Assembly: GCA_016935985.1 (NCBI GenBank)
Contig: JAFGPW010000006.1
Coordinates: forward strand, 89,047 to 153,046
From: Candidatus Woesearchaeota archaeon
GTDB taxonomy: Archaea > Nanobdellota > Nanobdellia > Woesearchaeales > JAFGPW01
Length of the DNA stretch: 64,000 nucleotides
Direction: 5' to 3'
A program made the translations under genes and the position numbers. Shown in pieces: positions 15,551 to 63,531 of this stretch (positions within the stretch are counted from its first letter, which is position 1; each line of letters opens with the position of its first letter). A model generated the notes under the pieces. That model was given only the letters and a program-made list of their open reading frames with translations, had not been told where the DNA came from and ran no database searches.

Positions 15551-15571
15551 CAGCCAGCCACCCATCCCTCG

Positions 15572-44888: not shown

Positions 44889-44960
44889 AAGGGAAAGGTG
44901 AGGGCGGCGGGTATTTAATGGTTATTAAGGATTCGGGAGACCCATCCGGGGAAATCCATC

Positions 44961-45824
44961 CTATCTCTCGTAGATGACGCGGCGCATCTCCCTGACGAAG
45001 CCGTCGGCCTCCTGGTACAGGGTATCGAACTCCCTGCCTGAGACCTCGTGCCGCTCCTTGTGGAGGATCTCCTTAGAGAGCCTATAGAACTTCCTCATCA
45101 CGGCCGCGTACTTGGGCTTGACGATGCCTGCCTTCACCATCCTCTCGTCGATCATGTCGGCGACGTGGCTCGGGCTCGGCGGTATCTCGCCGAGCTTCAT
45201 GAGCGCGGCATGCCCCGCATCGATCACCGCCCAATACAGGTCGAGGCTTGCTTGAAGCAGGTGCCACTTGCTGTTCCCGAGCGTGCGGGGGGCGCGGTGG
45301 TAGTAGACATGCACCGCTTCCGCGCTCGGCCGGACGCGGCCCTGGAAGAGCAGCGCCTGCATCGGCTCGAAGAAGCCGGTGTCGACGAGCGGGACGCCGT
45401 CGCGCAGCAGGTTGATCCCCACCGGGTCGCCGGCGCGGATGTATTCCCAGAAGGTCGTGAGCTTCAGGGTCGTCAGATGGATCTTGTCCGAGGTCTCGCG
45501 GATGATCTTCTCGGCGATCAGGCGGTAGCTCTCGACCACGTGCGCCGAGAGCTCTATCTGGACATCATCCACCACCACGAGGATGTCGATGTCGTTAGAG
45601 CCCTGCTGCTTCCTCGCGATCGAGCCGAAGAGGACGACCGCGCGAAGGAATATCCCGAACTCGGCATAGAGCCTCTTGGTGAACAGGTAGGCGATGTCGA
45701 GCTCGTCCTTCTTGTAATATTTGGTGTTCGCGTTCCCCGGCCGTTTCACGTCGAACTGCACTCGTCTCCCACCTTCTTGCCTTCTTCTCAGGGTCCCGAT
45801 GGGTTTAATAAGTTTTATGACCAT
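44961..45824 (-). CDS. Fusion of minimal nucleotidyltransferase (Pol-beta superfamily) and HEPN-like domain
   Basis: LFGSIARKQQGSNDIDILVVVDD is the classic hG[GS]...D.D NTase motif; all-alpha C-terminal half. Confidence 0.6.
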   Translation of the reverse strand: MVIKLIKPIGTLRRRQEGGRRVQFDVKRPGNANTKYYKKDELDIAYLFTKRLYAEFGIFLRAVVLFGSIARKQQGSNDIDILVVVDDVQIELSAHVVESYRLIAEKIIRETSDKIHLTTLKLTTFWEYIRAGDPVGINLLRDGVPLVDTGFFEPMQALLFQGRVRPSAEAVHVYYHRAPRTLGNSKWHLLQASLDLYWAVIDAGHAALMKLGEIPPSPSHVADMIDERMVKAGIVKPKYAAVMRKFYRLSKEILHKERHEVSGREFDTLYQEADGFVREMRRVIYER

Positions 45825-48449: not shown

Positions 48450-48480
48450 CCGGCGGGAGGGCCAGGGGGGACGGGCACGC

Positions 48481-48681
48481 ATGAGGCTCGCTGAACTGGA
48501 AGAGAACATCGAACGCATGATAGCGACCATGGAATTCTACCAGGAGCTCCTCGCCACGAAGACGCTCGACGAGGACGGCTTCGAGGCGCTCCAGGTGAAG
48601 GCCCGCTACGCGAAGGAGCAGCTGCTGCGCCTCACCCTCACCAACACGAGGCTCATCAAGCGGATGGAGAAGGGGCTCTGA
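48481..48681 (+). CDS. Small coiled-coil protein (66 aa)
   Basis: Short ORF between the ATPase and platform genes. Confidence 0.3.
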   Translation: MRLAELEENIERMIATMEFYQELLATKTLDEDGFEALQVKARYAKEQLLRLTLTNTRLIKRMEKGL

Positions 48682-48684
48682 GGG

Positions 48685-50802
48685 ATGGACGAGAAGAGGT
48701 TCAAGGACATGAAGGGACGGGCCCTGCGGATGCTCGAGATCATCAGGGAAATCCGCGTCCTCGAGGCGTACAAGGTCAGGATCAGCGAGACCGCGCGGAC
48801 GATCGAGGAGAATTACCAGAAGGGCGTCTACGGCTACTTCAGGTACCAGAACCTGCTCCACGAGCACCTCAAGGACAAGGGCCTCAAGGAGTGGGTCGAT
48901 TACTACAACGCGAGCATCATGGAGCTCCTTGCCGAGACAGACTTCCTCAACGCCCAGGTCTTCTACGACGTCTACCATGACGAGACGCGGCTCTCGCTCA
49001 AGGCGCTCAGGGTCCATCGGGTAACGAGGAAGGAGCCTGAGCCCCATCTCCCGGGCTATCCGGTCGATCCCGGGAAGGTGAAGGAGGAGAGGGCGCGGCT
49101 CTTCAGGCCGGTCCTCAGGAAGAAGATAACGACCGGGCTCACGCACCCTGAGACGGCGAAGCCAGCTCCCGCACCGCCGGTACCCGCGCCGGCTCCGGCC
49201 GAGGCGGCCCCCCTGCCCCCGCACCGCCCGCGCCTCCCGTTCTGGCATCGCTTCAGGCTGTCGCTCAGGGACCTGCTCCATCTGAAGACTAAAGCCGGTC
49301 CGCGGGCTAAGCCCGGGACGAGGAAGGCTCCCGCACCGCCAGCGTCGGCTCCGCCGCCCGCGCCAGAGGCATTCGCGCAGGGGCCGGAGAAGGCGCAGGC
49401 CCGCATGCCGCCGAGCGGGCCGGAAAAGGAGCCGGAGTTCATGGACCTCGACATCGGCGACGCCGGGAAGGTCACGACCGAGGCGCCGGCCGAGAAGGAG
49501 GGAAAGCCCATCTTCATGATACGGCCGCGCGGCGCCGCCGACGTGCTCCCCTGGCTCGAGGAGGGGGCGCGGGCGCGCACCCCGACGCTCGGGGAGCGCA
49601 TCACCGCCGCGTTCAGGGGGAAGCGGCGGAAGAGGACGCTCTTCGAGGACCTGCACGAGGAGGAGCCTGAGGCCGGCGGCGAGCCCATCGGCCTGCAGTT
49701 CAACATCATCAGGATGGTGAAGCGGATGCTGTCCGAGCGCCAGCAGTACATGGGCACGAAGACCGAGATATCGCCGACGCTCCTCTCGCTGCGCCGCTAC
49801 CGCGAGGGCACCATCACCGAGGTTGGCAAGGAGGACGTGAACGCGACGCTGCTCGCGAAGGAGGCGAGGCGCATCAAGAGAATCATAGGGAAGGAGTCGC
49901 GGTTCTCCATCTACAACCCTTCCTCAATCGGCTCGATCGCGAACGTGCTCGTCCGCAGGATCAGCCTCTACTTCATCGACCAGTATCCCGAGTTCTTCAA
50001 GGCCTTCTACAACAACCTGCGGCTCGCGAACATCAGGATCCTGTCCAACACCTATGTCAACATGATGACGCTCGCGGTGCTCTCCTCGCTCGGCGTCTTC
50101 ACGACGTTCTTCGCCGTGTTCTTCTGGGTGCTCGGCTACCCGCCCCTGCAGATCCTCGCGCGCACGCTCCTCGCCTCGAGCCTGTTCGGCATCCTCTCCT
50201 TCGTCCTGTTCTACACCTACCCGATCAGCCGCATCAGGCAGCGCCGGCGCTCGATCAGGACGAACCTGCCGTTCGCGATCAACCACATGTCGGCGGTCGT
50301 GTCCTCGGGGGTCCCCCCTGACGCGATGTTCCGGCTGATCGTCGAGTCGAGCGAGTACGGCGAGATCGTCGTCGAGATCGAGAAGATCGTCGAGTACGTC
50401 GACCTCTTCGGCTACGACCTCCTCACCGCGGTGAACAGCGTCGCGCAGATGACGCCGGCCGACGAGCTGCGCGAGTTCTTCGCCGGCTTCGTCTCGACGA
50501 TCGAGTCCGGCGGCGACCTCAAGGACTACCTCCAGCAGAAGGCCGAGGAGGCGATGCTCTCGTACAAGCTCGAGCGCCAGAAGTACCTCGAGTCGATCTC
50601 GACCTATTCCGACATCTACACCGGCATCCTCATCGCCGCGCCGCTCTTCTTCGTGGTCGCGCTCTCGCTCGTCAGCATGCTCGGCGGGCAGATCGGCGGC
50701 ATGGAGATCAACACCGTCATCGCTATCGGGACCTATGCGGTCATCCCGCTGCTGAACCTCGGCTTCCTCGTGTTCCTGCAGCTGAACCAGCCGGAGGTGT
50801 GA
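48685..50802 (+). CDS. Type IV filament platform protein (T2SSF domain; TadB/EpdJ-like) with ~420-aa cytoplasmic N-terminal extension containing Pro/Ala-rich linkers
   Basis: C-terminal ~280 aa carry TM helices and a T2SSF-like cytoplasmic domain (LPFAINHMSAVVSSGVPPDAMF...DLFGYDLLTAVNSVAQ). Confidence 0.7.
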   Translation: MDEKRFKDMKGRALRMLEIIREIRVLEAYKVRISETARTIEENYQKGVYGYFRYQNLLHEHLKDKGLKEWVDYYNASIMELLAETDFLNAQVFYDVYHDETRLSLKALRVHRVTRKEPEPHLPGYPVDPGKVKEERARLFRPVLRKKITTGLTHPETAKPAPAPPVPAPAPAEAAPLPPHRPRLPFWHRFRLSLRDLLHLKTKAGPRAKPGTRKAPAPPASAPPPAPEAFAQGPEKAQARMPPSGPEKEPEFMDLDIGDAGKVTTEAPAEKEGKPIFMIRPRGAADVLPWLEEGARARTPTLGERITAAFRGKRRKRTLFEDLHEEEPEAGGEPIGLQFNIIRMVKRMLSERQQYMGTKTEISPTLLSLRRYREGTITEVGKEDVNATLLAKEARRIKRIIGKESRFSIYNPSSIGSIANVLVRRISLYFIDQYPEFFKAFYNNLRLANIRILSNTYVNMMTLAVLSSLGVFTTFFAVFFWVLGYPPLQILARTLLASSLFGILSFVLFYTYPISRIRQRRRSIRTNLPFAINHMSAVVSSGVPPDAMFRLIVESSEYGEIVVEIEKIVEYVDLFGYDLLTAVNSVAQMTPADELREFFAGFVSTIESGGDLKDYLQQKAEEAMLSYKLERQKYLESISTYSDIYTGILIAAPLFFVVALSLVSMLGGQIGGMEINTVIAIGTYAVIPLLNLGFLVFLQLNQPEV

Positions 50803-51722
50803 GGGTGGCGTTCAGGCTGCAGTTCGACCTCAGGCACTCCCTCACGATGGGGATGGGGCTGATCCTCATCGGGCTCGACGCCGTGTTCTTCTTCGGGACG
50901 CCCCTCTTCATCCCGCTGATCGTCGTCGCGGTGACACTCGGGTGGAGCCAGTACTGGATCGACTTCTTCAGGGAGCGGGCGGCGCAGGGCCAGTACGAGG
51001 CGCAGTTCGGCGAGTTCGTGCGGAACCTCGTCGCGGGCATCAAGTCGGGCATGCCGGTGTCGCGCGCGATCATCCACGTCGCGAAGAACGACTACGGAGC
51101 GTTGTCCCCCCATGTCAAGAAGCTCGCGAACCAGATCGAGTGGACGATCCCCGTGCACAAGGCGCTCGTCAACTTCGGCGCCGCGACGCGGAACCCGATC
51201 ATCGCGCGCGCGATATCGACGGTGATCGAGGCGGAGCAGAGCGGCGGCAACATCGAGGACGTGCTCGAGTCGATCACCATCTCGCTGATGGAGATCAAGA
51301 AGATCAAGCAGTCGCGCAAGGCCTCGATCCAGGGCCAGGTCATCCAGTCCTACATCATCTTCTTCGTCTTCCTCGGCGTGATGATCATCATCCAGAACCT
51401 GCTCATCCCCTACATCTCGAGCATGGAGGCGAGCGGGTTCGGCATCGGGGAGGGGGGAATCAACCTGGCGCAGACGCGCGCGGTCCAGATCGAGGAGTCG
51501 ATGGCGATCGACTACCGCTCGCTCCCGCGCTTCTTCGAGACCTTCGGGCTGTGGCTCGTCTCCCTCCACGGCATCTTCCTCTCGCTCACGCTCGTCCAGG
51601 GGCTGTTCGCCGGGCTCGTCATCGGCAAGCTCTCGGAAGGGGACATCCAGGCAGGCATCAAGCACAGCCTGATCCTGATGACCCTCGCCTTCTTCGTGAT
51701 CAGCCTGGCGCAGGGGTTCTGA
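50799..51722 (+). CDS. Second type IV filament platform protein (single T2SSF domain; TadC/EpdK-like)
   Basis: GTGA start overlapping the upstream stop; 307 aa, N- and C-terminal TM helices flanking a T2SSF-like cytoplasmic domain. Confidence 0.65.
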   Translation: MRVAFRLQFDLRHSLTMGMGLILIGLDAVFFFGTPLFIPLIVVAVTLGWSQYWIDFFRERAAQGQYEAQFGEFVRNLVAGIKSGMPVSRAIIHVAKNDYGALSPHVKKLANQIEWTIPVHKALVNFGAATRNPIIARAISTVIEAEQSGGNIEDVLESITISLMEIKKIKQSRKASIQGQVIQSYIIFFVFLGVMIIIQNLLIPYISSMEASGFGIGEGGINLAQTRAVQIEESMAIDYRSLPRFFETFGLWLVSLHGIFLSLTLVQGLFAGLVIGKLSEGDIQAGIKHSLILMTLAFFVISLAQGF

Positions 51723-52570: not shown

Positions 52571-53395
52571 ATGGTCACCGTCGATATAGATGTCACGAAA
52601 TCCGTCGAGGAGAACGCGGCACGCTATTTCGAGGAGGCGAAGAGGGCGAAACGCAAGCTCGAGGGCGCGGCAGAGGCCTATAAGGCGTCGGTCGCCGCGT
52701 ACGAGAAGGCGAGAAAGGAGAAGGACTCCTACCTCGCGCGGTTCGAGGAGGAGGAGCGGCGCAGGAAGCGGTTCGCGCAGCGCAGGCGCCACTGGTACGA
52801 GAAATTCCGCTGGTTCTACAGCTCCGACGGCTTCCTCTGCGTCGGCGGCCGCGACTCGACGACGAACGAGGTCCTCATCAAGAAGCACGCCGAACCCGGC
52901 GACAAGGTGCTCCACACCGACATGGCCGGCGCGCCGTTCTACGTGGTAAAGGCGAAGGGGCGGCCGGTCCCCCAGACCACGCTCGAGCAGGCGGGCGTCG
53001 CCGCGGCCTCGTTCTCGAAGGCGTGGAAATCGGACCTGACGACCGCCGAGGTTTTCCACGTCGACCCTGATCAGGTGTCGAAGACCGCCGAGACGGGCGA
53101 GTACCTGACGAAGGGCGCGTTCGTCATCCGCGGGAAGACGAGGTACCTCCATCCCCGGCTCGAGCTCGGGGCAGGGCTCTTCGACTCCAAGGACGAGATC
53201 ATCATGGTCGGCCCGCGCGACGCTGTCATGGCGAACTGCGGGCGCTGGCTCGAGGTCTCCAAGGGCGCGCTGAAGACGAGCGACGCCGCGAAGCGCATCC
53301 AGAACATGCTCGGCGGCGAGCTCGACCAGATCATCCAGCAGCTACCGCCGGGTGGTGTCAGCATCACGGCGCCGCGGGAGAGGCCGAAGCACTAA
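52571..53395 (+). CDS. Coiled-coil + NFACT-R (DUF814) domain protein
   Basis: KFRWFYSSDGFLCVGGRDSTTNEVLIKKHAEPGDKVLHTDMAGAPFYVV is the DUF814/NFACT-R signature; the NFACT-N domain is absent. Confidence 0.6.
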   Translation: MVTVDIDVTKSVEENAARYFEEAKRAKRKLEGAAEAYKASVAAYEKARKEKDSYLARFEEEERRRKRFAQRRRHWYEKFRWFYSSDGFLCVGGRDSTTNEVLIKKHAEPGDKVLHTDMAGAPFYVVKAKGRPVPQTTLEQAGVAAASFSKAWKSDLTTAEVFHVDPDQVSKTAETGEYLTKGAFVIRGKTRYLHPRLELGAGLFDSKDEIIMVGPRDAVMANCGRWLEVSKGALKTSDAAKRIQNMLGGELDQIIQQLPPGGVSITAPRERPKH

Positions 53396-53449: not shown

Positions 53450-55171
53450 ATGGAGAACATATTTCTCGATATAGGAATGATCATCCTCGTCGCGACCGCC
53501 ATCTCCTATATCGCGCGGCTGCTCAAGCAGCCCCTCATCCCGGCCTATATCCTGACCGGGCTCGTCATCGGCCCGATGATGGGGCTGATCAAGAACCAGG
53601 AGGTCATCGCGACCCTCTCGGAGATCGGCATCGCGTTCCTCCTCTTCATCGTCGGGCTTGAGATCGACTTCCGGCGCCTCAAGGACGTCGGGCTCGTCTC
53701 GACCCTCGGCGGCACCATCCAGGTGCTGATCGTCTTCATCTTCGGCTACCTCATCTCCGTCGCGCTCGGCTTCGCGCCCATCCATTCCTTCTACCTCGGG
53801 CTCATCCTCGCCTTCTCATCCACGATGGTGGTGGTGAAGATCCTCTCGGACAAGCGCGAGCTCGACACGCTCCACGGCCGCATCGTGCTCGGCATCCTGC
53901 TCATGCAGGACGTGATCGCGATCCTCGCGCTCTCGGTGCTCTCGACGCTCGCCGAGTTCAGCTCGATGTTCCTCCTCATCTCCGTCGGGAAGGGCTTCGT
54001 CCTCGCGCTCACCGCGGCCTTCTTCGGCCACTTCATCTTCCCGCAGGTCTTCAAGTTCGCGGCAAAAAGCCAGGAGTTCTTCTTCCTCGTCTCCGTCGCG
54101 GTCTGCTTCTCGTTCGCGATCCTCTTCCATATGGTGGGCTTCTCGATCGCCATCGGCGCGTTCGTGGCGGGGATCACGCTCGCGAACCTCGAGTACAGCT
54201 TCGAGATCATCGGGAAGGTCAGGTCCTTGAAGGACTTCTTCGCGATCCTCTTCTTCGTCTCGCTGGGGATGCAGCTCTCGGTGGGCACCATGCAGGGGCT
54301 CGTCTGGCCGCTCGTCATCCTCACCGTGTTCGTGCTGGTGTGCAAGCCCCTCGTCATCATGATCGTCTCCTCGCTCTTCGGCTACAAGAAGCGCACGAGC
54401 TTCATCTCCTCGGTCAGCCTCGCCCAGATCTCCGAGTTCAGCCTGATCATCGTGGCGCTCGGGATGACGCTCGGGCAGGTGAGCGACGAGATCGTCACGA
54501 TATCGATCCTGCTCGCCATCATCACGATCACCATCACCTCCTACACCCTCAAGTACGAGAAGGAGCTCTACGACTTCTTCGCGAAGATGCTCAATATCTT
54601 CGAGACGCTCTCGTCCGGGATGGACGACCTCGAGTTCCTGCCGGCCAAGCAGAAGCGCGACGTCGTGCTCTGCGGCTACGACCGGACCGGCTACTCGATC
54701 CTGAGGAAGATCAAGGAGCTTCGGAAGGAGGTGGTGATCGTCGACTTCAATCCGGATATCATCAAGCGCCTGATCAGGGAGAAGGTCCCGTGCATCTACG
54801 GCGACATGAGCTCCGAGGAGATCATCGAACGGATCGGTCTCGAGCGGGTCAAGCTCATCATCTCGACGATCCCCGACGTCCAGACCTCGCATGTCCTCAT
54901 CAAGAAGGCGCGGGCGATCAACAGGGATATCATCATCTTCGTCACCGCCTACCAGGTGGACGACGCGCTCGACCTCTACGACACGGGCGCCGACTATGTC
55001 ATCCTGCCCCATTTCCTCGGCGGCGAGCACGTCTCGCTCATCCTCGAGGACGTGACCGCCGACCTCAACAAGCTGCTCAAGACCAAGGTCGACCATATCA
55101 GGGAGCTGCACACCCGCCGGGATCTCGGCCACCACCACCCGCAAGGCCTTCAGAAGAGCAAGGAGGACTGA
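53450..55171 (+). CDS. CPA2-family monovalent cation:proton antiporter with C-terminal RCK/TrkA-N domain (KefB/C-like)
   Basis: ~12 TM helices, then a Rossmann RCK domain (VVLCGYDRTGYSILRKI). Confidence 0.8.
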   Translation: MENIFLDIGMIILVATAISYIARLLKQPLIPAYILTGLVIGPMMGLIKNQEVIATLSEIGIAFLLFIVGLEIDFRRLKDVGLVSTLGGTIQVLIVFIFGYLISVALGFAPIHSFYLGLILAFSSTMVVVKILSDKRELDTLHGRIVLGILLMQDVIAILALSVLSTLAEFSSMFLLISVGKGFVLALTAAFFGHFIFPQVFKFAAKSQEFFFLVSVAVCFSFAILFHMVGFSIAIGAFVAGITLANLEYSFEIIGKVRSLKDFFAILFFVSLGMQLSVGTMQGLVWPLVILTVFVLVCKPLVIMIVSSLFGYKKRTSFISSVSLAQISEFSLIIVALGMTLGQVSDEIVTISILLAIITITITSYTLKYEKELYDFFAKMLNIFETLSSGMDDLEFLPAKQKRDVVLCGYDRTGYSILRKIKELRKEVVIVDFNPDIIKRLIREKVPCIYGDMSSEEIIERIGLERVKLIISTIPDVQTSHVLIKKARAINRDIIIFVTAYQVDDALDLYDTGADYVILPHFLGGEHVSLILEDVTADLNKLLKTKVDHIRELHTRRDLGHHHPQGLQKSKED

Positions 55172-55250: not shown

Positions 55251-55514
55251 ATGACTATGAAGATTAAGCATACCAATACCGTGGCGGTGCGGTTCAACCC
55301 CGGACGGCAGGCCCTCACGATAGTCGCGGCAGGCAAGGTCCACCGGGAAGGCGAGATCCTCGCCGAGGATCCCATCACCATCACCATCGAGCTGCAGGGG
55401 AAAGGGGTCCTCGACATCGCGCACGCGTTCGGCCAGGAGACCGCGGACGTCAAGACATGGATATCGCCGGGCGGAAGGTTCGGGCGCATCAAGCCCAGCA
55501 TCGATCTCGATTAG
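55251..55514 (+). CDS. Small hypothetical protein (87 aa)
   Basis: ORF immediately upstream of the yhbY-like gene; no motifs. Confidence 0.3.
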   Translation: MTMKIKHTNTVAVRFNPGRQALTIVAAGKVHREGEILAEDPITITIELQGKGVLDIAHAFGQETADVKTWISPGGRFGRIKPSIDLD

Positions 55515-55519
55515 GCACC

Positions 55520-55867
55520 ATGGGAACAGGAGCGATCGGATACGCCGAATTCGGCGACAGGCGGCTCCTCGCGGAGCTGCGCGGCCGCGCCCAGGCGCTC
55601 GCGCCGGCGATGCAGGTGGGCAAGAACGGCGTGACCCCGAACGTGGTGGCGGACCTGAAGCGGCACCTGAAGCGGCGCCGGCTCGTCAAGGTCCGGCTCC
55701 TCAAGGGCTTCATCGAGGGCAGGGACCGGTTCGCCGAGGCGCAGGCCATCGCCCAGGCAACGGAGAGCACGCTCATCCAGGTGGTCGGCTTCTCGGTGGT
55801 GCTGTACAAAGCGCCGGCCGCAGGGCTTTCCGGCCGAAATGTTTTTAAAGGCGGCTCCCGAGAGTGA
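55520..55867 (+). CDS. CRS1/YhbY (CRM) RNA-binding domain protein
   Basis: QVGKNGVTPNVVADLKRHLKRRRLVKVRLLKG ... TLIQVVGFSVVLYK matches the YhbY/CRM fold. Confidence 0.75.
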   Translation: MGTGAIGYAEFGDRRLLAELRGRAQALAPAMQVGKNGVTPNVVADLKRHLKRRRLVKVRLLKGFIEGRDRFAEAQAIAQATESTLIQVVGFSVVLYKAPAAGLSGRNVFKGGSRE

Positions 55868-55891: not shown

Positions 55892-57316
55892 GTGGTCAAG
55901 CTCTCAGATTACGGATTCAAGGAAGAGAAGATGGAGATCACGCGGGGCCAGCCGCCGATCCCCACCGGCTTCCCGGCGACGAAGAAGCGGGAATGGCTGA
56001 TCTTCGAGTCGGTCAACCAGTCGATGGAAGAAGTCTACTACTGGGTGCTCGAGCACCTCAGGATCGACCAGTCCTGCATCGTCGAGGACAAGATAAGCGA
56101 CGTGTTCGCAGCGAGCGAGCATTCCGCGTTCTTCGGCGTCGCCCAGCAGCGGATCGGCCTCCAGCAGGACAAGGTCTCCCAGTTCCTCGCGACCATCGGC
56201 AAGATGGTGAAAGAGCTCTTCCAGCTCGTCCGCGAGCTCCGCATCCTCGACGAGCGCCTCTCCTACTACAAGGACTCGTATTCAGGCAGCAAGAGCGCGC
56301 TGTCGGCGGAAGTGACGCTCAAGGGGATCTGGATCGACATGGTCGAGCAGGGCGCGAAGAACCCGGCGAGCGTCTACGGCATGGCGCGTGACCTGCAGTT
56401 CGTGACCCTTCCTGACCTCTTCTTCAGCGCGCCGCCGATGCGCAAGAGCGATGTGGACGGCCATGTCATGAGGCTCGACTTCAACCGCAAGGTGAAAGAG
56501 GTGCTCTCGCGCAAGCTCCGCACCTTCATCGAGTGGAAGGAGGCGACCTATAAGGAGCTCAAGACGAAGAGGCTTTTCACCGTCAAGTACCTCAAGCAGC
56601 ACTACGACATCATCAAGATGTACATGTCCTGGGTAAAGCCGTACCTGCGGAACCTCCGCCGGCTCGGGCTTTCTGAGAGGCACATGAACAGCCCCGACCT
56701 CGTGGGCGCCTTCGAGTCCTCGGCAATCGAGGTCGAGTTCCTGGCGAAGAAGATCGCGAAGGAGGGGAGCAAGGTCTGGGGGGTCATCATCGCCCACTTC
56801 AAGTACCGGACCATGCCCCAGATGAGCTTCCAGCGCGAGGGCTACCAGCGCGGGCCGCTCCATATGGGCCATGCCGAGTTCGTGCTGCGCGCGTATGCCT
56901 GGACCGAGGAGGAGATCACGAGGTACAAGGAGTACCGCGATGCCGAGGACATGGAGATCCTCGGCTCTATCGACGCGAGCGTGAAGGCCGCGATGGAGGC
57001 GCTGGGGGACGAGCTGCAGAAGTACCTCGCCGAGGCCGAAGGGAAGGTGTACTCGCCGCCCACCACGGCGAAGAGGAGCGCCGCCGAGGCTGCGATATCG
57101 GCAGCAGACCCCTTCCTCGGCATCTTCCGCGGATTCGGCGACATGTTCTCAGCCCTGACCTCGATACGGTTCTCCGGGGACGGCAAGGGAAAGCCCACCG
57201 CGAGCAGCATGTACAAGGAGGACTCGGACAGGAAGACCGCGTATTCCTCTGTAGAGCGCTCCGCCTGGCTCTGCTACAAGAATTTCAAGAAGGCCCACCG
57301 GATGCTCACCTGGTGA
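55892..57316 (+). CDS. Large hypothetical protein (474 aa), mostly alpha-helical
   Basis: Coding-like composition, no nucleotide-binding or catalytic motifs recognised. Confidence 0.45.
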   Translation: MVKLSDYGFKEEKMEITRGQPPIPTGFPATKKREWLIFESVNQSMEEVYYWVLEHLRIDQSCIVEDKISDVFAASEHSAFFGVAQQRIGLQQDKVSQFLATIGKMVKELFQLVRELRILDERLSYYKDSYSGSKSALSAEVTLKGIWIDMVEQGAKNPASVYGMARDLQFVTLPDLFFSAPPMRKSDVDGHVMRLDFNRKVKEVLSRKLRTFIEWKEATYKELKTKRLFTVKYLKQHYDIIKMYMSWVKPYLRNLRRLGLSERHMNSPDLVGAFESSAIEVEFLAKKIAKEGSKVWGVIIAHFKYRTMPQMSFQREGYQRGPLHMGHAEFVLRAYAWTEEEITRYKEYRDAEDMEILGSIDASVKAAMEALGDELQKYLAEAEGKVYSPPTTAKRSAAEAAISAADPFLGIFRGFGDMFSALTSIRFSGDGKGKPTASSMYKEDSDRKTAYSSVERSAWLCYKNFKKAHRMLTW

Positions 57317-57320
57317 GCGT

Positions 57321-57659
57321 TCAGTTGCGCCGTGCGTTCTGGTGGGGGATACCCCGGACAGGACGGTAGACCGTATCGCCGAAGTACTGCTTGGAGAAGA
57401 GGGCTTTGCTCCCTGACTCGAGTATCACCCTGAAGAAGGTGCCGTTCGGCGTCCCGAGCTTGCTATGATACTGTAACCGGTTGTCAGGCAGCCCCAATTC
57501 CTTCATCTTGCGAAGGTCCATCACCAGGTAGTCGCCTCGCGTGATGTTGTCGATGCTCAGCGGTTCTACCCCTATGACGACCTTTGCCAGCGGCTCGTCA
57601 TTCCGAATCTCTGTATCGTTGAGCTTTATCGGGTACGTGTTCTTGAATTGGGAAACCAT
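57321..57659 (-). CDS. Small hypothetical protein (112 aa)
   Basis: AT-richer ORF convergent with the 474-aa gene. Confidence 0.35.
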   Translation of the reverse strand: MVSQFKNTYPIKLNDTEIRNDEPLAKVVIGVEPLSIDNITRGDYLVMDLRKMKELGLPDNRLQYHSKLGTPNGTFFRVILESGSKALFSKQYFGDTVYRPVRGIPHQNARRN

Positions 57660-57780
57660 CTGCTTTCACCTCAGGGGATTGATCCCGACACATCTGAATG
57701 GCATCCTCTATATAAACCTTTCCATTTTATAGTCCCTTTATAGTGGTAACAACAGAAAATATAAATAGCAAGTTCCCTCC

Positions 57781-58356
57781 GTGGCGGCTGGGATGGCCGA
57801 TTTCGACGCGAAGAGCCTAGAGAAGCTGTCGCCTGCGGAGCGGATAGCGAAGCTCAAGGATCTCGAGAAGACCCGGAAGGAGGAGCAGGAGGAGATAGCA
57901 AGGCTACTCAAGAAGAGCGAGGAGGAGCGCCGGCGCCAGATCGAGGAGATGCTCGACGATGTCGAGGTGCCAGACGAGGTCGATCTGGAGAGCAGGTTCA
58001 GGCCTGACGATGAGGAGAGCCTGGATGCCCAGGTCGAGACGGAGGCGCCTGAGGCGGAGGAAGAGCATGCCATCCATTCCCGATATCAGACCTTCCTCGC
58101 CAGGCAGGCCTTCGATGATCTCTACTCGAACATCGTCGGCATGGCGAGCGAGGCGAGCGAGGCAGGCTACACAACGCCTGACATGATGGGCCGGGCGGTC
58201 GACATGGCCTATGCCATCCGCCAGAAGCAGGATGACATCGCCCGCGGCGCATACAACTCCCAGAAGCTGCTCGACGAGCAGATGGATGCGGCGAAGAGGA
58301 TCCTCGACATGGTCATGGGGATGTACAAGCCGGAACGTCGGGTCGGCCCCTACTGA
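57781..58356 (+). CDS. Acidic coiled-coil hypothetical protein (191 aa)
   Basis: Highly charged N-terminal helix (KLKDLEKTRKEEQEEIARLLKKSEEERRRQIEEM) and acidic linker; TATA (aatataaatagc) upstream. Confidence 0.4.
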   Translation: MAAGMADFDAKSLEKLSPAERIAKLKDLEKTRKEEQEEIARLLKKSEEERRRQIEEMLDDVEVPDEVDLESRFRPDDEESLDAQVETEAPEAEEEHAIHSRYQTFLARQAFDDLYSNIVGMASEASEAGYTTPDMMGRAVDMAYAIRQKQDDIARGAYNSQKLLDEQMDAAKRILDMVMGMYKPERRVGPY

Positions 58357-58437
58357 ACACACACTGATGAATAAATAACCACTTTATAGTAAGGAAGTAA
58401 AGCAATATTTAAATACCACCAGCCGCTCACCCCACGC

Positions 58438-60489
58438 ATGACGACAGCGACAGCCGTCTATCAGACAGAAGTCGTCGGTCGGGCACGGGAGCTCAACCAG
58501 GGCCTGGACAGAATCTCCATCCTCCTGAGGCCCTACTCCCAGGACCACCTCGATCTCGCCCGCCGTATCAGCGCGCTCACCACAGGACTCTACGACGCGA
58601 TCGGCGCTTCGCTCGATACGCTGCATACCGACCTCGCCGGCTTCGCCACCATCCCGAAGACCTCGATCGCCATCGCCGGCGAGCACCTGCTCGCATCCCA
58701 CCGGGTGTTCGAGGACCGCAGGGGAGAATGGCAGCGGAAGACCGGCTATCCCCCCCTCAGTTACCTCAACCGTTCTGACAAGCTCGTCAGCGACACCCTC
58801 CTCGCCGTAGGCTACAAGCTCGGCGCGGCCATCAAGAGACACTATTCGTTCCACCACATCCATGCTATAGCCCGCGACATCACCAAGCCATTCTGGGACG
58901 GGAAGAAGGTCAGCGTGACAGATGACACCTTCATCCCGCTCATGCTGCAGGGATATCATCTCCTCTCCGAAGCCGACGAGCGCCTGCAGGCGCATCTCGC
59001 GCATGAGCACACGGAGACTATCGCGACCGACGCGATAGTCGCTGCCGCCGGGAAGCGCCTCGGCACCGCGATCGACCGCATATTCCAGGAATTCCATCGT
59101 CGGAACGGGAATAAGCTCAGGGAAGAGATCGAGAGTATCGATCGCAAGATCGACACGAACCTCGAGCGGCTCGGCCACCCGCAATATCTCATGCATGGCT
59201 TTCCTGAACCCGGCGTCGGCGACGAGCTCGTCGCCTTCTGGCTCAGGCTCATCACGACCCGGCAGCTCCTCGACTGCTATCGGAAGGGGGAGCAGTCCTC
59301 CGAGAGGTATGCGACGATTATCGAGAAGGGGGATCGGGCTCTCGACCGCCACGCCCAGACCGGGATCGCAGCAGGCCTGCTCGCCGGTCTCCAGGAGACG
59401 GGCAAGGAGATCGACGCCATGATCGCGCATGACAGGGGGCATATCGATGACATCATCACCTATGGCACCGGCCAGCTCGACATCGGCAAGCGTCTCGAGC
59501 AGGCCGAGGAGACAGTCAGGTACTTCGCGCGCCAGGAACGCCAGGACCGGCTCGCCGTCCCACGGCCCTTCTTCAGGACCATCAAGCGGCTCTATGACGG
59601 CGTGCAGGCGAGATTCGGACCGTGGAAAGAGCTCCATCATCTCAAGACCGACCTCTATGTCATGGACGAGATGCTCCATTCCGAAGACAAGGACATCACG
59701 GTGAATTTCAAGAACGCCTCGAGCGTCGAGTACTTCACCGCGCTCCTCGGCAACGCGCGGCACCGGATCACGCGCCACCTCAGGAGAGAGAGCGCCGGCA
59801 ATCCGCCGAGCTATCTGTCCAGGGAGGCGATCGGCGCGCTCTCACGAAAGCTCTCCCGAATCGGCTCCGATTTCAGGAAGGGCCTCGCTGACGCGGAAGG
59901 CCGATCGCTCCCCGAGTGGATTGAAGGGCTCCCGATGACCCAGCAGCGGAAGAGCAGGCGCAGGCGCCGCACGCCCGAAATCGAGGATAAGACCAAGAAG
60001 CGGGGATGGTGGAAGTACGCAGCGGTCGCCGCCGGGGCGCTGGGAATCGGCCTGCTCGCGACATGGTACTCGATGAAGCCGGTAACGGTTCCGCAGCAGG
60101 AGCCTGCCACCGCACCGGCCGCATCGAAGAGCGCCGATGTGGAGCGCCACTGGCTCGCGTCGATGGTGGGGGAGACCTTCACCGCGGAGATGACCCCTGC
60201 CGACCGGAACTTCACCCTCTTCGCGCGCAGGATCGGCATCCCGCGAGATCTCGAGCAGCGGTTCGTCCTCGACCTCCAGAAGCGGAACGGCTGGAAGGCG
60301 ATACCCGGGAAGAACGACTGGTGCTCGGGGATCGAGGGCAGGGTCGTCGGAACGAGGGAGGATCCGCGATCCGACGGCGCGATCGACGACATCGGCATCG
60401 TGCCTGCCGACAGGAAGGTCTTCCTGCCGCAGGGGTACTGGCGGCTCTATGATTATTCGGCGGTCACGAGCACGCTCACCATCCGCTGA
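58438..60489 (+). CDS. Large hypothetical protein (683 aa) with single TM helix near residue 520
   Basis: ~510-aa N-terminal soluble region, basic stretch KSRRRRRTPEIEDKTKKRGWW, TM helix YAAVAAGALGIGLLATWY, ~165-aa C-terminal domain; TATA (aatatttaaatacc) upstream. Confidence 0.45.
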   Translation: MTTATAVYQTEVVGRARELNQGLDRISILLRPYSQDHLDLARRISALTTGLYDAIGASLDTLHTDLAGFATIPKTSIAIAGEHLLASHRVFEDRRGEWQRKTGYPPLSYLNRSDKLVSDTLLAVGYKLGAAIKRHYSFHHIHAIARDITKPFWDGKKVSVTDDTFIPLMLQGYHLLSEADERLQAHLAHEHTETIATDAIVAAAGKRLGTAIDRIFQEFHRRNGNKLREEIESIDRKIDTNLERLGHPQYLMHGFPEPGVGDELVAFWLRLITTRQLLDCYRKGEQSSERYATIIEKGDRALDRHAQTGIAAGLLAGLQETGKEIDAMIAHDRGHIDDIITYGTGQLDIGKRLEQAEETVRYFARQERQDRLAVPRPFFRTIKRLYDGVQARFGPWKELHHLKTDLYVMDEMLHSEDKDITVNFKNASSVEYFTALLGNARHRITRHLRRESAGNPPSYLSREAIGALSRKLSRIGSDFRKGLADAEGRSLPEWIEGLPMTQQRKSRRRRRTPEIEDKTKKRGWWKYAAVAAGALGIGLLATWYSMKPVTVPQQEPATAPAASKSADVERHWLASMVGETFTAEMTPADRNFTLFARRIGIPRDLEQRFVLDLQKRNGWKAIPGKNDWCSGIEGRVVGTREDPRSDGAIDDIGIVPADRKVFLPQGYWRLYDYSAVTSTLTIR

Positions 60490-60526
60490 TTCAGGTATAC
60501 CACTTCTTAGTATACACATTTGTATA

Positions 60527-60566
60527 CAAAGGTATATAAATAGTAAAGTATATAAACTAGCGATGC
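60527..60566 (+). promoter_or_regulatory. Strongly AT-rich promoter region (ggtatataaatagtaaagtatataaac) upstream of the 756-aa gene
   Basis: Tandem TATA-like elements ~35-70 nt upstream of ATG 60600. Confidence 0.45.
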
Positions 60567-60599
60567 CCTAGACCCTGATGCAGCTAGAGGAATGATCCT

Positions 60600-62870
60600 A
60601 TGGCATTCGGCGAATATTATTCCACCATGGACCGCGGGTATGCGAGCGTCGCCCCGCCGAACACGCTCGCCGACCTGCCGGAGATGAACAGCGAGTTCTC
60701 CCCACTCTCAGCCAACCCAGGCGACCCCTCGCCGGACATCTCGGAGGACATGATCCCGGCACCTGCCCCTATCGACACGTCATGGAGCGATCCTGACCGG
60801 ATAGGACCCTTCCGGCCTGACTTCGAGTCCCAGTCGAGCGGCGACCCTGCCGCACGGGTCGGCATGAAGGAAGTCGGCGTCTCGGTGACCGAAGGCAACA
60901 GGTTCGGCAGCTTCCTGCAGACAGTCACCTCGGCGATCCGTCTGGGCGGTTCGGCGATCGAGCTCCAGCCCCAGCTCGGAGGCGGCGCCGAGGCGACCGG
61001 CGTCGAGAGCTACGGCATCGAGGCGAGGAAGGCGCTGCGCGACCTCGCGCGCGTGAACCAGGTCAAGCTCACGACTGTCCACACGCCGAGCCAGATAGGC
61101 AACCTCTCCGGCTTCAACCCCCAGCATGGCTTCTCCGACGACCAGCGGCTCGCGAGCATCGAGGAGGTCAGGAAGGCGATCGACTTCGCGGCAGACGTCA
61201 CCGGCGGCGGGCCGGTGGTCGTGCACACCGGCGAGTACCAGCGGCCGATCTCCGAGCAGGAGTGGGCGAAGAACCCGGACGGCAGCTACCGGTTCCTCGG
61301 CTATGCGGAAGAGCCGGGGCGCGCCATCACCTACATGGTGGATGACCGCACCGGCCGCATCATCTCCGACGTGCGCAAGAGCCAGATCATCCGCGAGCCG
61401 GTCTACAAGGAGGCAGACCATGATTACACAGACAAGAACGGCAAGAAGGTTTTCAAGGGCGACTGGATCGACAAGGACGGCAACTACATCGACCCGGCGA
61501 ACCCCGACGACCTCTTCAGCCGGATCCCCCGATGGGATTCCGACAAGACGAGGTTCCAGACGCGAAAGCTCTCCTGGACCGAGATCCAGGAGCGGGCGGA
61601 CAAGTTCAACCGACGTCATCCCGGAGAGAACATAACCCCCGAGGAGATGGCGTTCCGCATCCAGATGGAGACCCAGATGCTGCAGTACCGCGGCTCGTCC
61701 CTCTACCACGGCAGGTTCTACGACCAGGTCAAGGACCGGAGGGAAAAGTACCTCGAGGCCCTGGACTGGTGGACGAAGTTCGAGGGGGCGATCCCGAAGG
61801 AGAAGCTCGACGAGGTGAAGGTGATCGCCGACGACGCGTCCCGCTACCTCGGCGCCCAACATATCGTCGCCTATGACAAGAAGCTCCCGACCCAGCTCCT
61901 CCAGGACGCGATCAAGCAGGCGAACCAGGAGATGCAGTACACGCACGAGGCGAGCGCGTCGGCCGACGCGCAGGCCGACACCATCCAGGACACGCTCGAC
62001 CACGTGAAGCCGATCTCGCAGTACGCGATAGAGCAGTCGCTCAAGAGCTATGCGGAGGCCGGCATCCATGCGATGCTCCAGACCAAGCACAACAAGAACG
62101 TCACGCGCGACATCTTCGTCGCGCCTGAGAACATCTTCCCCGAGACGGGCTACGGCTCGCATCCCGAGGAGCTCATCGAGCTCGTCGAAAAATCCCGCGA
62201 GCGGATGGTCGACTACCTGACCAGCCCAAAGGTCGAGGACCCGACCGCGCAGCGCGACAAGGACGGCAACCTCAAGAAGGTGAAGAACCCCTATTACATG
62301 CCGGGGGTCAGCAAGGAGCAGGCGAAGCGCGAGGCGGAGAAGCATATCAAGGCCACGTTCGACACCCAGCATCTCGGCATGTGGCGCAAGCACTTCCAGC
62401 CGCAGTACAATAAGGGCGAGGGCCGGATGGAGACCAAGCAGGAGACCGACAAGCGTTTCAGGGGATGGTACATGGACCAGATCGGGAAGATGCAGAAGCG
62501 GGGCGTGCTCGGCCACCTGCATCTCGTCGACTCCATGGGCACCGGCCATACCCACCTGCCGATCGGCCAGGGCATGAACCCGGCGATCGAAGCGGTGGAG
62601 TACCTCAAGAAGAAAGGATTTTCCGGCACCATCACCTCAGAGGGGTTCGCCGAGGAGCAGCACCAGCCCGGCCGGCAGTTCACCGAGGTCCTCAACGCCT
62701 TCGGCAGCCCGATCTATTCGAGCGGCTTCTTCGGCCCGGCCCCCGGCATGGCCAGATGGACCGACATCGAGGACAGCTATTTCAGGCAGATGCAGACCCC
62801 CTACTTCATCTTCGGCTCCTACTCACCGTCGAACGACTGGACGCTCTGGAGCCAGGTCCCGCTCGAATGA
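60600..62870 (+). CDS. Xylose-isomerase-like TIM-barrel (sugar phosphate isomerase/epimerase, AP endonuclease 2 family) protein with ~90-aa disordered N-terminus and a ~300-400-aa insertion
   Basis: N-terminal half: AIELQPQLGG...VKLTTVHTP...AADVTGGGPVVVHTGEY. C-terminal half: GHLHLVDSMGTGHTHLPIGQGMNPAIEAVEYLKKKGFSGTITSE. Several hundred residues of K/E/D-rich sequence lie between. Confidence 0.5.
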   Translation: MAFGEYYSTMDRGYASVAPPNTLADLPEMNSEFSPLSANPGDPSPDISEDMIPAPAPIDTSWSDPDRIGPFRPDFESQSSGDPAARVGMKEVGVSVTEGNRFGSFLQTVTSAIRLGGSAIELQPQLGGGAEATGVESYGIEARKALRDLARVNQVKLTTVHTPSQIGNLSGFNPQHGFSDDQRLASIEEVRKAIDFAADVTGGGPVVVHTGEYQRPISEQEWAKNPDGSYRFLGYAEEPGRAITYMVDDRTGRIISDVRKSQIIREPVYKEADHDYTDKNGKKVFKGDWIDKDGNYIDPANPDDLFSRIPRWDSDKTRFQTRKLSWTEIQERADKFNRRHPGENITPEEMAFRIQMETQMLQYRGSSLYHGRFYDQVKDRREKYLEALDWWTKFEGAIPKEKLDEVKVIADDASRYLGAQHIVAYDKKLPTQLLQDAIKQANQEMQYTHEASASADAQADTIQDTLDHVKPISQYAIEQSLKSYAEAGIHAMLQTKHNKNVTRDIFVAPENIFPETGYGSHPEELIELVEKSRERMVDYLTSPKVEDPTAQRDKDGNLKKVKNPYYMPGVSKEQAKREAEKHIKATFDTQHLGMWRKHFQPQYNKGEGRMETKQETDKRFRGWYMDQIGKMQKRGVLGHLHLVDSMGTGHTHLPIGQGMNPAIEAVEYLKKKGFSGTITSEGFAEEQHQPGRQFTEVLNAFGSPIYSSGFFGPAPGMARWTDIEDSYFRQMQTPYFIFGSYSPSNDWTLWSQVPLE

Positions 62871-62943
62871 TGCCGCGGAGGGGGGCGCAGGGGCGGGGAA
62901 CCGGTCGGAACATTTATATTGTCAGGAGGGCCTCCAACCGCCC

Positions 62944-63531
62944 ATGGGGGATACGGTGGACGGCCGGTTCAAGCGGTACAAGCTCATCGAGGCCGCGTAT
63001 GACGACTATGAGCGAGAGATGATCGACCAGGGCGTCTATCCCATGCGGGAGACCGACCTCGGTTTCTGGGGCACCTCCACCATCGGCAACATCTACGAGC
63101 TCTTCATCAAGATACGGCTGCAGGACTGCCGCAGCTTCGTGGATCTGGGCAGCGGCGACGGCAGGGTCGCGAACCTCGCGAGCGTCTTCACGAGTTCGAC
63201 GGGGATCGAGTATGACAAGCCCCTCTTCGAGCGGAGCCTCGCCTTCAAGCGGCAGCTGGGCCTCTCGACCGAGTTCGTCAGGGACGATTTCCTCTCGGTC
63301 GACCTCTCCGGCTACGACGTCGCTTTCATCTACCCTGACAAGCGGTTCACCCTGCGCTTCGAGAACAAGCTGGAGCGCGAGTTCACAGGGAGGCTCTTCG
63401 TCTATACCAGCGTCTTCCACCCCTCATGCCTCGTGAAGGGGAGGACCTACTGGGTGAACCAGACGCCGGTGCTCTCCTTCACCGCGAGGGGCCAGTGGCT
63501 GCTGCGGCAGGAGAAGGGCAAAGGCGGATAG
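62944..63531 (+). CDS. Class I SAM-dependent methyltransferase-like protein
   Basis: Motif I FVDLGSGDGRVANLA and post-I acidic residue; 195 aa. Confidence 0.5.
   Translation: MGDTVDGRFKRYKLIEAAYDDYEREMIDQGVYPMRETDLGFWGTSTIGNIYELFIKIRLQDCRSFVDLGSGDGRVANLASVFTSSTGIEYDKPLFERSLAFKRQLGLSTEFVRDDFLSVDLSGYDVAFIYPDKRFTLRFENKLEREFTGRLFVYTSVFHPSCLVKGRTYWVNQTPVLSFTARGQWLLRQEKGKGG

Follow-up and report, generated by a model that had tools for sequence, protein, structure and literature searches.

The window, a stretch of 64,000 nucleotides, comes from the chromosome of a DPANN archaeon represented by a Candidatus Woesearchaeota MAG. A region of 62% GC content within it includes five open reading frames on the plus strand, named here genes A (474 aa, nucleotides 55892..57316), C (191 aa when read from a GTG start, 57781..58356), D (683 aa, 58438..60489), E (756 aa, 60600..62870) and F (195 aa, 62944..63531). 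A first-pass annotation had described them as five consecutive genes. All five are present with the positions and sizes given there, and they can be considered real coding sequence because their GC3 values are 0.83-0.91 as compared to 0.61-0.63 in long antisense ORFs. They are not consecutive, however, as a sixth gene, B (112 aa, 57321-57659), is found on the minus strand between A and C. The gap between A and C is 464 nt and contains the antisense gene B, while that between C and E is 2,243 nt and contains D. Upstream of A, the plus strand between nucleotides 53450 and 55867 carries a gene for a Na+/H+ exchanger (53450-55171) that includes a TrkA_N domain, an ORF of 87 aa and, at 55457-55867, a gene for an RNA-binding protein of the YhbY/CRM type. 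This group of three genes is kept in about half of the relatives and is regarded as context, outside the module proposed below.

The claim that each gene has its own strong TATA element held, since the AT-rich boxes are real and one start-proximal box is found for each gene. Nine of the ten runs of at least 8 A/T bases between 55.4 and 64 kb are located upstream of a gene start. The start-proximal box lies ~27-55 nt upstream of the start codon in every gene, a distance that fits leaderless or short-leader transcripts. The box of gene A (TTTTTAAA, 55842..55849, plus strand) falls within the 3′ end of the yhbY-like gene, and that of gene C (57756..57767, plus strand) is an A/T run in the spacer between B and C, which also includes two boxes (57709-57716 and 57724-57731) that can serve the minus-strand gene B. 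On the plus strand, gene E is preceded by two adjacent boxes (60533..60556, with runs at 60533 and 60549), and the boxes of genes D (58404..58415) and F (62912..62920) are at positions that fit leaderless transcripts. A further A/T run, at 58370, was assigned to gene D. The short gaps and lack of internal promoters that would define an operon are therefore not found within the window, where the gaps are long and each gene has a TATA-like box.

Proteins encoded by genes A, C, E and F

Scans of A, B, C, D and the E insertion against Pfam, NCBIfam, PHROGs and PADLOC, carried out with whole proteins and with separate domain pieces, returned no significant match. Nor did anything emerge from the PDB when it was searched, by sequence and by profile, with A, with a diverse profile of A, and with C and D. 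The earlier statement that A, C and D have no assignable motifs agrees with these results; no significant sequence or structure match to any known protein family or fold was obtained for the three proteins, and no description of these protein families was found in the literature.

Gene A, the anchor of the conserved module, codes for a basic protein (pI 9.1) that is encoded by 328 GTDB species representatives. Its homologues include 1,486 matches at ~55% identity, every one of them labelled hypothetical, and the family comprises 700 clusters at 50% identity. The predicted structure consists of an alpha/beta domain, a long helical hairpin (residues 92-131 and 199-260), a disordered linker (385-434) in which a motif rich in Phe is conserved, and a C-terminal helix that is basic and amphipathic and closes with an invariant Trp; the last 18 residues have a hydrophobic moment of ~0.56 and a positive net charge. 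This confidently predicted helix may pack on the protein instead of binding a membrane. No match to A was found among Pfam families, PDB sequences or PDB folds, the missing fold match being weak evidence because the model is of moderate confidence (pLDDT 71, pTM 0.57). Residues that stay invariant across divergent members of the family are for the most part W, P, G, F, Y and L, with a few Lys, Arg and Glu, no His/Asp/Cys cluster was found among them, and the protein looks non-enzymatic. Gene A is the slowest-evolving gene of the neighborhood, with a mean pairwise distance of 0.60, whereas the antiporter reaches 0.78 and E 0.98.

Gene C, the second member of the conserved core, had been described as a charged coiled-coil protein of 191 amino acids. 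The product is indeed acidic (pI 4.6) and helical, but its length is probably 187 amino acids, with the start at the ATG at 57793 as gene callers have it; the exact 191-aa form is absent from the protein collection searched. The protein has a conserved N-terminal motif, L-SPEERIKKLKELEE..., and the family was found in 57 of 80 related loci, directly after A or after E. Comparison with the coiled-coil defence proteins of PADLOC gave values of 0.009 or weaker. Weak matches of the coiled-coil type were also observed, with a minor head protein of phages and with DruG/LmuB. The idea of a virus or capsid protein raised by the "minor head protein" matches was rejected, as these map to residues 21-136 of C, a part that is charged, acidic and rich in coiled coil, and A was not found in the 2.9 million viral contigs of IMG/VR.

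Gene E, the third core member, codes for a xylose-isomerase-like TIM barrel that had been recognized as split by a long insertion, an assignment confirmed by the Pfam AP_endonuc_2 model (53 bits versus a cutoff of 31.1, in two stretches). All 120 E homologues among the matches listed carry this domain (PF01261), and the split architecture is the same throughout the family. In the predicted structure the strands of a (beta/alpha)8 barrel lie within residues 92-209 and 505-680, so that instead of a single contiguous domain of 250-300 residues the 756-aa protein has a barrel broken after beta4. The insertion of ~290 residues between beta4 and beta5 (residues 213-500) is composed of a beta subdomain and a five-helix bundle, a second insertion of ~50 residues precedes beta6, and neither one matches any known structure. 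The protein is acidic (pI 5.5), with a disordered N-terminus and a C-terminal tail that is disordered yet invariant (PYFIFGAYSPSNDWxLWSQVPxE). Eight potential metal-ligand positions are invariant (H161, H209, E510, D588, H591, H641, H650 and E681) and sit at the ends of predicted strands beta3 to beta8. Four of them, E510, D588, H641 and E681, which do not vary in 26 sequences, correspond to a metal site made up of Glu, Asp, His and Glu at the C-terminal ends of strands beta5 to beta8, an equivalence taken from motif and strand order and not from a solved structure. The closest solved relative was MJ1311 of Methanocaldococcus jannaschii (PDB 3WQO, E-value 5e-8 with the E profile), followed by UlaE (5e-5) and D-tagatose 3-epimerases (0.03-0.1), over beta7-beta8 only. 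MJ1311 and other PF01261 barrels share with E the motifs VHxP, VVVHxG, DTxH, HxxD...H and SE. They differ in that they are about 270-290 amino acids long and lack the two insertions, the disordered termini with the invariant C-terminal tail, and the dedicated conserved partner genes.

The product of gene F had been called a small SAM-MTase. It is a class I SAM-dependent methyltransferase, and its family can be assigned as well: profile matches to Sulfolobus aKMT4 (5fa8, 1e-10), 5jwj (2e-9) and DOT1L (about 1e-5 to 9e-8) place it in the aKMT/DOT1-like protein-lysine methyltransferases, with lysine methylation as the predicted activity. In its DLGSGDG motif D67, G69, G71, D72 and G73 do not vary, and S70 is almost invariant. 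F agrees with aKMT4/DOT1 in size (about 180 aa) and SAM motif; on the other hand, it is extended at the N-terminus by a segment in which a GFWG motif is conserved, and although a homologue passes the Pfam DOT1 cutoff of 23 bits with 33 bits, the window's own F remains below it (16.8 bits). A match to the methyltransferase domain of PADLOC mad2 was weak (4.8e-5).

Conservation and gene order of the A-C-E module

The 80 related loci were the best matches, and as such may over-represent one clade; synteny was counted in 41 loci with at least 7 kb of sequence downstream of A. Within those 7 kb, C or E was found in 40 loci, E in 34, C in 31 and F in 21. E and A share a strand in all 59 tblastn matches. 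In most relatives A, C and E follow one another head-to-tail, and the median gaps are 5 nt from A to C and 2 nt from C to E, short gaps of the kind expected in an operon, which imply co-transcription. Regarding the possible co-occurrence of the proteins of 474, 683 and 756 amino acids, A and E are accompanied by C, all encoded on one strand, in nearly every related genome, whereas D was absent from the 80 loci.

The orders A-C-E, A-E-C and A-F-C-E were observed, F, a looser neighbor of the core, being located between A and C in three loci. The flanking contexts vary by locus: four or more were found upstream, and the downstream neighbors are F, NTP_transf_2, T2SSE, DNA ligase or surface proteins. 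A lineage (L085) whose A scores only 196 bits against that of the window, with 32% identity by tblastn, retains the trio, as does a metagenome contig of 37% GC (L087). In ~15% of the genomes (L049, L052, L067, L072 and L081) A and C are found without E nearby, and one locus (L083) has A with neither C nor E nearby. A scan of metagenomes with divergent A sequences yielded two loci only. A bacterial origin of the divergent A of L083, which is located beside a sigma-70 gene, was considered and rejected because an NCBI record from Woesearchaeota is part of its protein cluster and sigma-70 genes are common in Woesearchaeota (PMC8204110). Genes A, C and E thus constitute a real, previously undescribed gene module that is specific to the Woesearchaeota lineage.

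Could the three genes be unrelated housekeeping genes that remain adjacent because rearrangement is slow among related Woesearchaeota, with no functional module? The linkage could in part be phylogenetic inertia, as the antiporter, YhbY, NTP_transf_2, DUF483 and TYW3 recur near A too. The separate promoter of each gene in the window, and the fact that the rest of the window is ordinary chromosome (with IleRS, PolB and a P-type ATPase), are also compatible with this explanation. Mirror-tree co-evolution of A and E had to be discarded as evidence since its signal is unspecific, the distance matrices of A and E being correlated (r = 0.76-0.80) no more strongly than those of A and NTP_transf_2, an unrelated neighbor (r = 0.86). 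However, A, C and E stay together despite changing flanks and a permuted internal order, with gaps of a few nucleotides that imply co-transcription, and they are retained in a deeply divergent lineage. Other recurrent neighbors behave differently: the antiporter is upstream of A in only 28 of 56 loci, and in the window the NTP_transf_2/TYW3 block is 10 kb away and inverted. We regard simple adjacency of housekeeping genes as an unlikely explanation.

A proposed scaffold with a metal-dependent enzyme

Our preferred reading, to which we assign a probability of about 0.5, is that of a vertically inherited Woesearchaeota module with a core of A, C and E and with F as a frequent satellite, in which E would be catalytic, A a scaffold and C an adaptor. 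In this genome the ancestral operon would have been broken up by B between A and C and by D between C and E, with a TATA-type promoter for each gene. E would be a divalent-metal TIM-barrel enzyme of the xylose-isomerase/endonuclease IV superfamily, probably bi- or trinuclear, acting on a sugar, a sugar-phosphate or a phosphoester, and its large inserted domain could provide the specificity. A is proposed to be a non-enzymatic and probably self-associating scaffold; it evolves more slowly than the other genes of the neighborhood and lacks invariant residues of a catalytic type. Its basic amphipathic helix at the C-terminus may tether it to the membrane. C, an acidic coiled-coil protein, would serve as an adaptor to A, which is basic, and the invariant tail of E could be a docking peptide or, alternatively, mediate contacts within a homo-oligomer, a DPFxSVFKGFG motif of A being another candidate contact site. 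The formation of a complex, A as its scaffold, the association with the membrane and the substrate class are what we infer.

The organization resembles that of MbnB-MbnC, TglH-TglI and the C-glycoside deglycosidases DgpB/C or CarB/C, in which a metal-dependent barrel from the same superfamily is accompanied by an adjacent, co-inherited non-catalytic partner. The resemblance is one of organization, as A and C have no similarity to MbnC, TglI or DgpB. FtsA and MinD are peripheral-membrane polymers anchored by a C-terminal amphipathic helix that follows a flexible linker, and self-assembling proteins are typically very strongly conserved. By analogy, the linker of A followed by a conserved basic aromatic amphipathic helix, together with its very strong conservation, may point to a comparable behavior, although A has no ATPase fold or motif and no sequence or fold similarity to these proteins, and its membrane binding and polymerization are hypothetical. 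A bolder form of the proposal, which we put forward as a speculation with a low chance of being correct, would have A as the subunit of a self-assembling membrane-associated scaffold of a kind not seen before, a cytoskeletal or coat element found only in DPANN archaea of the Woesearchaeota type, that together with C recruits the multinuclear-metal enzyme E by short aromatic docking motifs. The trio would then be a new archaeal machine essential to these ultra-small symbionts, and the slot between C and E would take lineage-specific accessory genes like D.

A different function was considered for E, that of an endonuclease IV-like phosphodiesterase, in which case A-C-E would be a DNA/RNA repair or processing complex with the basic A binding nucleic acid or acting as a scaffold. 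The ligands of the three zinc ions in E. coli endonuclease IV (Nfo), the sequence of which was verified against 1QTW, we take to be H69, H109, E145, D179, H182, H216, D229, H231 and E261. In E each of the nine positions appears to be filled by a potential ligand, and the order of the strands is kept; the eight invariant positions are joined by H652, which is nearly but not fully invariant. Eight are the same residue as in Nfo and the remaining one is a change of Asp229 to His. The basic nature of A and the YhbY RNA-binding gene just upstream would fit such a complex. MJ1311 has been listed as a predicted endonuclease IV homologue of M. jannaschii (PMC2770678). Against this assignment, E gave no match to the NCBIfam sequence models of endonuclease IV, and hhalign comparison of the E barrel with Nfo, with and without the insertion, was not significant (probability 0.3%). 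E also has the large insertion, no DNA-recognition loops could be identified in it, and the protein is acidic. At the sequence level its relatives are sugar epimerase-like, namely UlaE and MJ1311, the latter deposited as D-tagatose 3-epimerase-like, and the His residues of beta3 and beta4 are also present in non-nuclease members such as MJ1311. We regard the nuclease assignment as doubtful.

The proposal of the first-pass annotation, a single undescribed system made up of all five large genes including the single-TM protein D, was based on their being contiguous and co-directional, each with a strong promoter, and on a recognizable domain being present only in E and F. The single TM helix of D is probable (residues about 525-547, N-in), with flanks of +7 and -1 that fit the N-in topology; its hydropathy, on the other hand, is borderline (Kyte-Doolittle 19-residue maximum of 1.47 at 528-546). 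The gene is present only in this MAG and its sample. No homologue of D was found in the 80 related loci, by tblastn in phages or plasmids, or in a collection of 5.8 billion proteins, from which the self-match is missing too, the representative of D's 90% cluster being a 42-aa fragment; this absence indicates that D is not a conserved component. B is a singleton cluster with no homologue in the 80 loci and no family match, and lies outside the conserved module. The GC3 values of D (0.83) and B (0.76) are lower than those of A, E and F (0.90-0.91), and in most relatives C abuts E directly. As far as sequence comparison can tell, D and B are strain-specific insertions that split an ancestral operon, and a system of five genes is very improbable. 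Different genes are found at the C-E position in two other genomes (L087 and L037), and the slot itself could be meaningful.

The view of the module as a mobile or defence island, or as one derived from a virus, which might be taken from the two orphan genes of lower GC3 inside the cluster and the phage and DruG/LmuB matches of C, is largely refuted for A, C, E and F by the absence of A from viral contigs and of D from phages and plasmids, the lack of any significant PADLOC or PHROG match (only weak ones, above 1e-5), the conserved position beside housekeeping genes in hundreds of genomes, and the high GC3 that A, E and F share with the core genes of the window.

Significance for the Woesearchaeota

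Few uncultivated archaea are as widespread as the Woesearchaeota, yet the majority of their genes lack annotation. Castelle et al. (2021) defined a 'Module 98' of 51 protein families, mostly without predicted function, that are widespread in Woesearchaeota and Pacearchaeota and absent elsewhere (PMC8204110). A, C and E fit its description and may be among these families, for which that study reports neither a gene cluster nor a structure or function. The identification of D and B as orphan insertions and of F as an aKMT-type methyltransferase removes the false leads of the five-gene hypothesis. The remaining trio is a tractable experimental target, consisting of three soluble proteins of which one has a predictable active site, and could also serve as a lineage marker. 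A is among the best-conserved proteins of the lineage, with ~55% identity across hundreds of species, and evolves more slowly than the neighboring cation antiporter. Because of this strong conservation, the lack of any relative or fold match and the operon-like tie to a modified metal enzyme, it is likely that A does something central to Woesearchaeota cell biology.

Gene content and conservation of the neighbourhood

The first-pass annotation described a five-gene neighbourhood of large unexplained proteins as a candidate undescribed system. ORF calling located all five plus-strand ORFs: A (474 aa, 55892-57316), C (57781-58356; 191 aa from a GTG, the most likely start being the ATG at 57793, which gives 187 aa), D (683 aa, 58438-60489), E (a 756-aa TIM-barrel protein, 60600-62870) and F (a 195-aa methyltransferase, 62944-63531). 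They were judged to be coding because their GC3 is 0.83-0.91 as compared to 0.61-0.63 in antisense ORFs. As a consequence of the high GC content of the window (62%, GC3 about 0.9), very long spurious antisense ORFs are found, including minus-strand non-genes of 464 aa (58384-59778) and 591 aa (60780-62555), both with a GC3 of about 0.62. This genome has a GC3 of 0.9-0.97 at 62% GC, and related MAGs have mostly about 32-44% GC, judging from their names and from one metagenome contig (L087, 37%). A is identical to JXB02_04920, annotated as a hypothetical protein in a Woesearchaeota MAG, where its contig is 163 kb long. A sixth gene, B (112 aa, 57321-57659, minus strand), is located between A and C. 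The proposal that each gene has its own TATA element was borne out: between 55.4 and 64 kb there are ten A/T-only runs of at least 8 nt, all but one of them upstream of a gene start, and the start-proximal A/T box precedes the start codon of every gene by about 27-55 nt.

ORFs were clustered from 80 loci around homologues of A; these loci are the best matches, and one clade may be over-represented among them. C or E was found within 7 kb downstream of A in 40 of the 41 loci whose downstream DNA extends for 7 kb or more (E in 34, C in 31, both in 25, F in 21), and E was on the same strand as A in all 59 tblastn matches. The gene orders found were A-C-E, A-E-C and A-F-C-E. The surroundings vary, with an antiporter and YhbY, a GTPase and HisRS, NAD(P)HX dehydratase or others upstream of A, and F, DUF483, NTP_transf_2, TYW3, T2SSE, DNA ligase or surface proteins downstream. 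The spacing in loci with the order A-C-E is operon-like: the median gap is 5 nt between A and C (at most 30 nt in 25/33) and 2 nt between C and E (at most 30 nt in 19/25). In L085, a lineage with a score of just 196 bits between its A and that of the window, the trio is still present: A is followed by a 183-aa coiled-coil protein and a 620-aa AP_endonuc_2 protein, the genes overlapping or abutting. The order in L087 is antiporter-YhbY-A-C-(141 aa)-(267 aa)-E, which indicates that unrelated genes are found between C and E in other genomes too. A few genomes lack E near A-C, and in one divergent Woesearchaeota A stands by itself.

Other housekeeping neighbours of A are likewise partly syntenic, and a distance-matrix (mirror-tree) comparison did not single out the A-E pair (r = 0.76-0.80, versus 0.86 for A and NTP_transf_2). 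Our conclusion is an ancestral A-C-E operon with F as a frequent satellite; in this genome, the insertion of B and D together with the individual promoters has broken it up. Thus, the system originally proposed persists as a real conserved module of three genes (A, C, E) plus one (F) but not as one of five. On the question of whether the 474-, 683- and 756-aa proteins co-occur, A and E do so in 34/41 loci, while D is absent from the 80 loci.

With a cutoff as permissive as E ≤10, no homologue of D turned up in the 80 related loci, and phages and plasmids gave no match. None was found either in a collection of 5.8 billion proteins, a negative weakened by a database artefact: the 90% identity cluster of D is represented by a 42-aa fragment, so that the D query misses even D itself. 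B is a singleton cluster in the same collection. B and D are strain-specific insertions. The single-TM topology proposed for D agrees with its only hydrophobic segment, which is borderline (residues 528-546, KD 1.47), and with the charges of the flanks (+7 on the N-side, -1 on the C-side). Unrelated lineage-specific genes occupy the position of D in L087 (10331-11710) and, between A and E, in L037; the C-E junction may be a preferred gene-insertion site.

The remainder of the window and related loci

The window is ordinary chromosome. Its genes encode IleRS, a family B DNA polymerase, a P-type ATPase, a HAD hydrolase, a Na+/H+ exchanger, a YhbY protein, the C-terminal half of RqcH, and a type IV pilus-like ATPase with platform genes; neither tRNA genes nor Rfam matches were found in it. 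The product of the RqcH-like gene (52571-53395, plus strand) consists of NFACT-R only and aligns with positions 381-644 of the archaeal RqcH model, which has 645 positions. The same short form, about 260-270 aa in length, is present in at least 21 related loci, and RqcH seems to be truncated or split in this lineage. The type IV pilus/archaellum-like cluster (46830-51722, plus strand), consisting of a T2SSE ATPase, a 66-aa ORF and two T2SSF platform proteins, precedes the module both here and in L053. A T2SSE/T2SSF set is directly 3' of E in three other genomes (L045, L055, L069). Many relatives have NTP_transf_2, TYW3 and a large surface protein in a block behind E or F. In the window this block is at 41473-45824, about 10 kb upstream of A and inverted, which shows a local rearrangement that kept A-C-E-F together.

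A minus-strand gene (13659-14663) encodes a 334-aa protein with two winged-helix/AsnC-type HTH domains. Its GC3 is atypically low, below the 0.74 used as the filter for accepting genes, and it is in the low-GC patch at 14001-16000 (GC 0.525), next to the lowest-GC stretch of the window; it may have been recently acquired. The lowest GC3 among accepted genes, 0.74, is that of a 478-aa orphan-like ORF (23821-25257, minus strand) with no Pfam match. Near the divergent A homologue of the Woesearchaeota contig L083, a full bacterial-type sigma-70 gene (regions 1.2, 2, 3 and 4) is located at 16800-17644, in agreement with PMC8204110, which reports that sigma-70 genes are often found in Woesearchaeota.

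The TIM-barrel protein E and the methyltransferase F

A Pfam AP_endonuc_2 match confirms that E is a split TIM barrel, and the homologues listed all share the 680-800-aa split architecture. In the AlphaFold model (pLDDT 76.7, pTM 0.74, confident core at residues 90-700) the predicted barrel strands are 92-97, 119-123, 156-161, 204-209, 505-510, 585-588, 637-642 and 677-680. These positions place the main insertion, of about 290 residues and modelled as a small β subdomain and five long helices, after β4. The nearest solved sequences by profile are MJ1311 (5e-8) and UlaE (5e-5). A set of 26 homologues has no variation at H161, H209, E212, E510, D588, H591, H641, D644, H650 and E681. By strand order and motif (DTQH/DTCH, HLVD/HLND, GHTHLPIGQG/DRHHSLGEG, SE/LE), these residues appear to correspond to the nine ligands that bind zinc in E. 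coli endonuclease IV (Nfo), whose sequence was checked against 1QTW. A profile comparison of E with Nfo nevertheless found no significant relationship. MJ1311 also has the extra histidines seen in E. From these residues, E appears to be an active metal enzyme, either an isomerase/epimerase or a phosphoesterase, and within its known superfamily it represents a new architecture. There is no variation in the last 23 residues despite their predicted disorder, which suggests a docking or oligomerisation peptide. This aromatic-rich, strongly conserved C-terminus (residues 734-756, window 62799-62870) reads PYFIFGAYSPSNDWxLWSQVPxE.

The Pfam methyltransferase signal in F is weak. Since a profile of F and its homologues matches Sulfolobus aKMT4 (1e-10), another archaeal protein-lysine methyltransferase (2e-9) and DOT1L, we assign F by profile similarity to the known family of aKMT/DOT1-like lysine methyltransferases. 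F can thus be placed in a family. The initial view that no motif can be assigned stands for A, C and D; neither these nor B gave anything significant in searches of Pfam, NCBIfam, PHROGs, PADLOC and PDB sequences.

Proteins A and C and the possible role of the module

A and C matched nothing known, and no description of the A-C-E cluster was found in the literature searched; Castelle et al. 2021 (PMC8204110) report only a block of 51 unannotated families common to Woesearchaeota and Pacearchaeota. More than 1,486 homologues of A were found among the candidates scored. Those among the matches listed are 52-60% identical along their entire length, all unannotated, and come from Woesearchaeota or "Nanoarchaeota" MAGs. 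A is encoded by 328 GTDB species representatives, its family comprises 700 clusters at 50% identity in an exhaustive profile search, and it had no match in viral contigs. C is an acidic (pI 4.6), fast-evolving coiled-coil protein with a conserved N-terminal motif.

The predicted structure of A is of moderate confidence (pLDDT 71, pTM 0.57). The N-terminal part of the model consists of strands and one helix, and next come a very long hairpin of helices, three long strands and more helices. Residues 385-434 are predicted to be disordered and precede a C-terminal helix that is modelled with confidence. Most residues that stay invariant in divergent members are W, P, G, F, Y or L, along with a few Lys, Arg and Glu; the set does not resemble a catalytic constellation. 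A is slower-evolving than E and the neighbouring antiporter, is basic (pI 9.1), ends in an 18-residue basic amphipathic helix (hydrophobic moment about 0.56), and has DPFxSVFKGFG conserved in its disordered linker. Because of these features, A is probably a non-enzymatic, self-associating scaffold, and it may bind the membrane. The linker motif extends to DPFxSVFKGFGExF (residues ~407-420, window 57110-57150), aromatic-rich and strongly conserved within the predicted-disordered segment; the last residue of A is an invariant Trp. The aromatic-rich motifs of the A linker and the E C-terminus may be docking peptides.

The nearest organisational analogy to A-C-E is that of MbnBC, TglHI and DgpBC, in which a TIM-barrel enzyme has a dedicated adjacent partner, although those partners have no homology to the ones in this module. 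A scaffold-plus-enzyme mechanism is proposed with moderate-to-low confidence. While conserved hypothetical proteins are common in DPANN, A is distinguished by its extreme conservation, the absence of any detectable relative, and a tractable enzyme partner.
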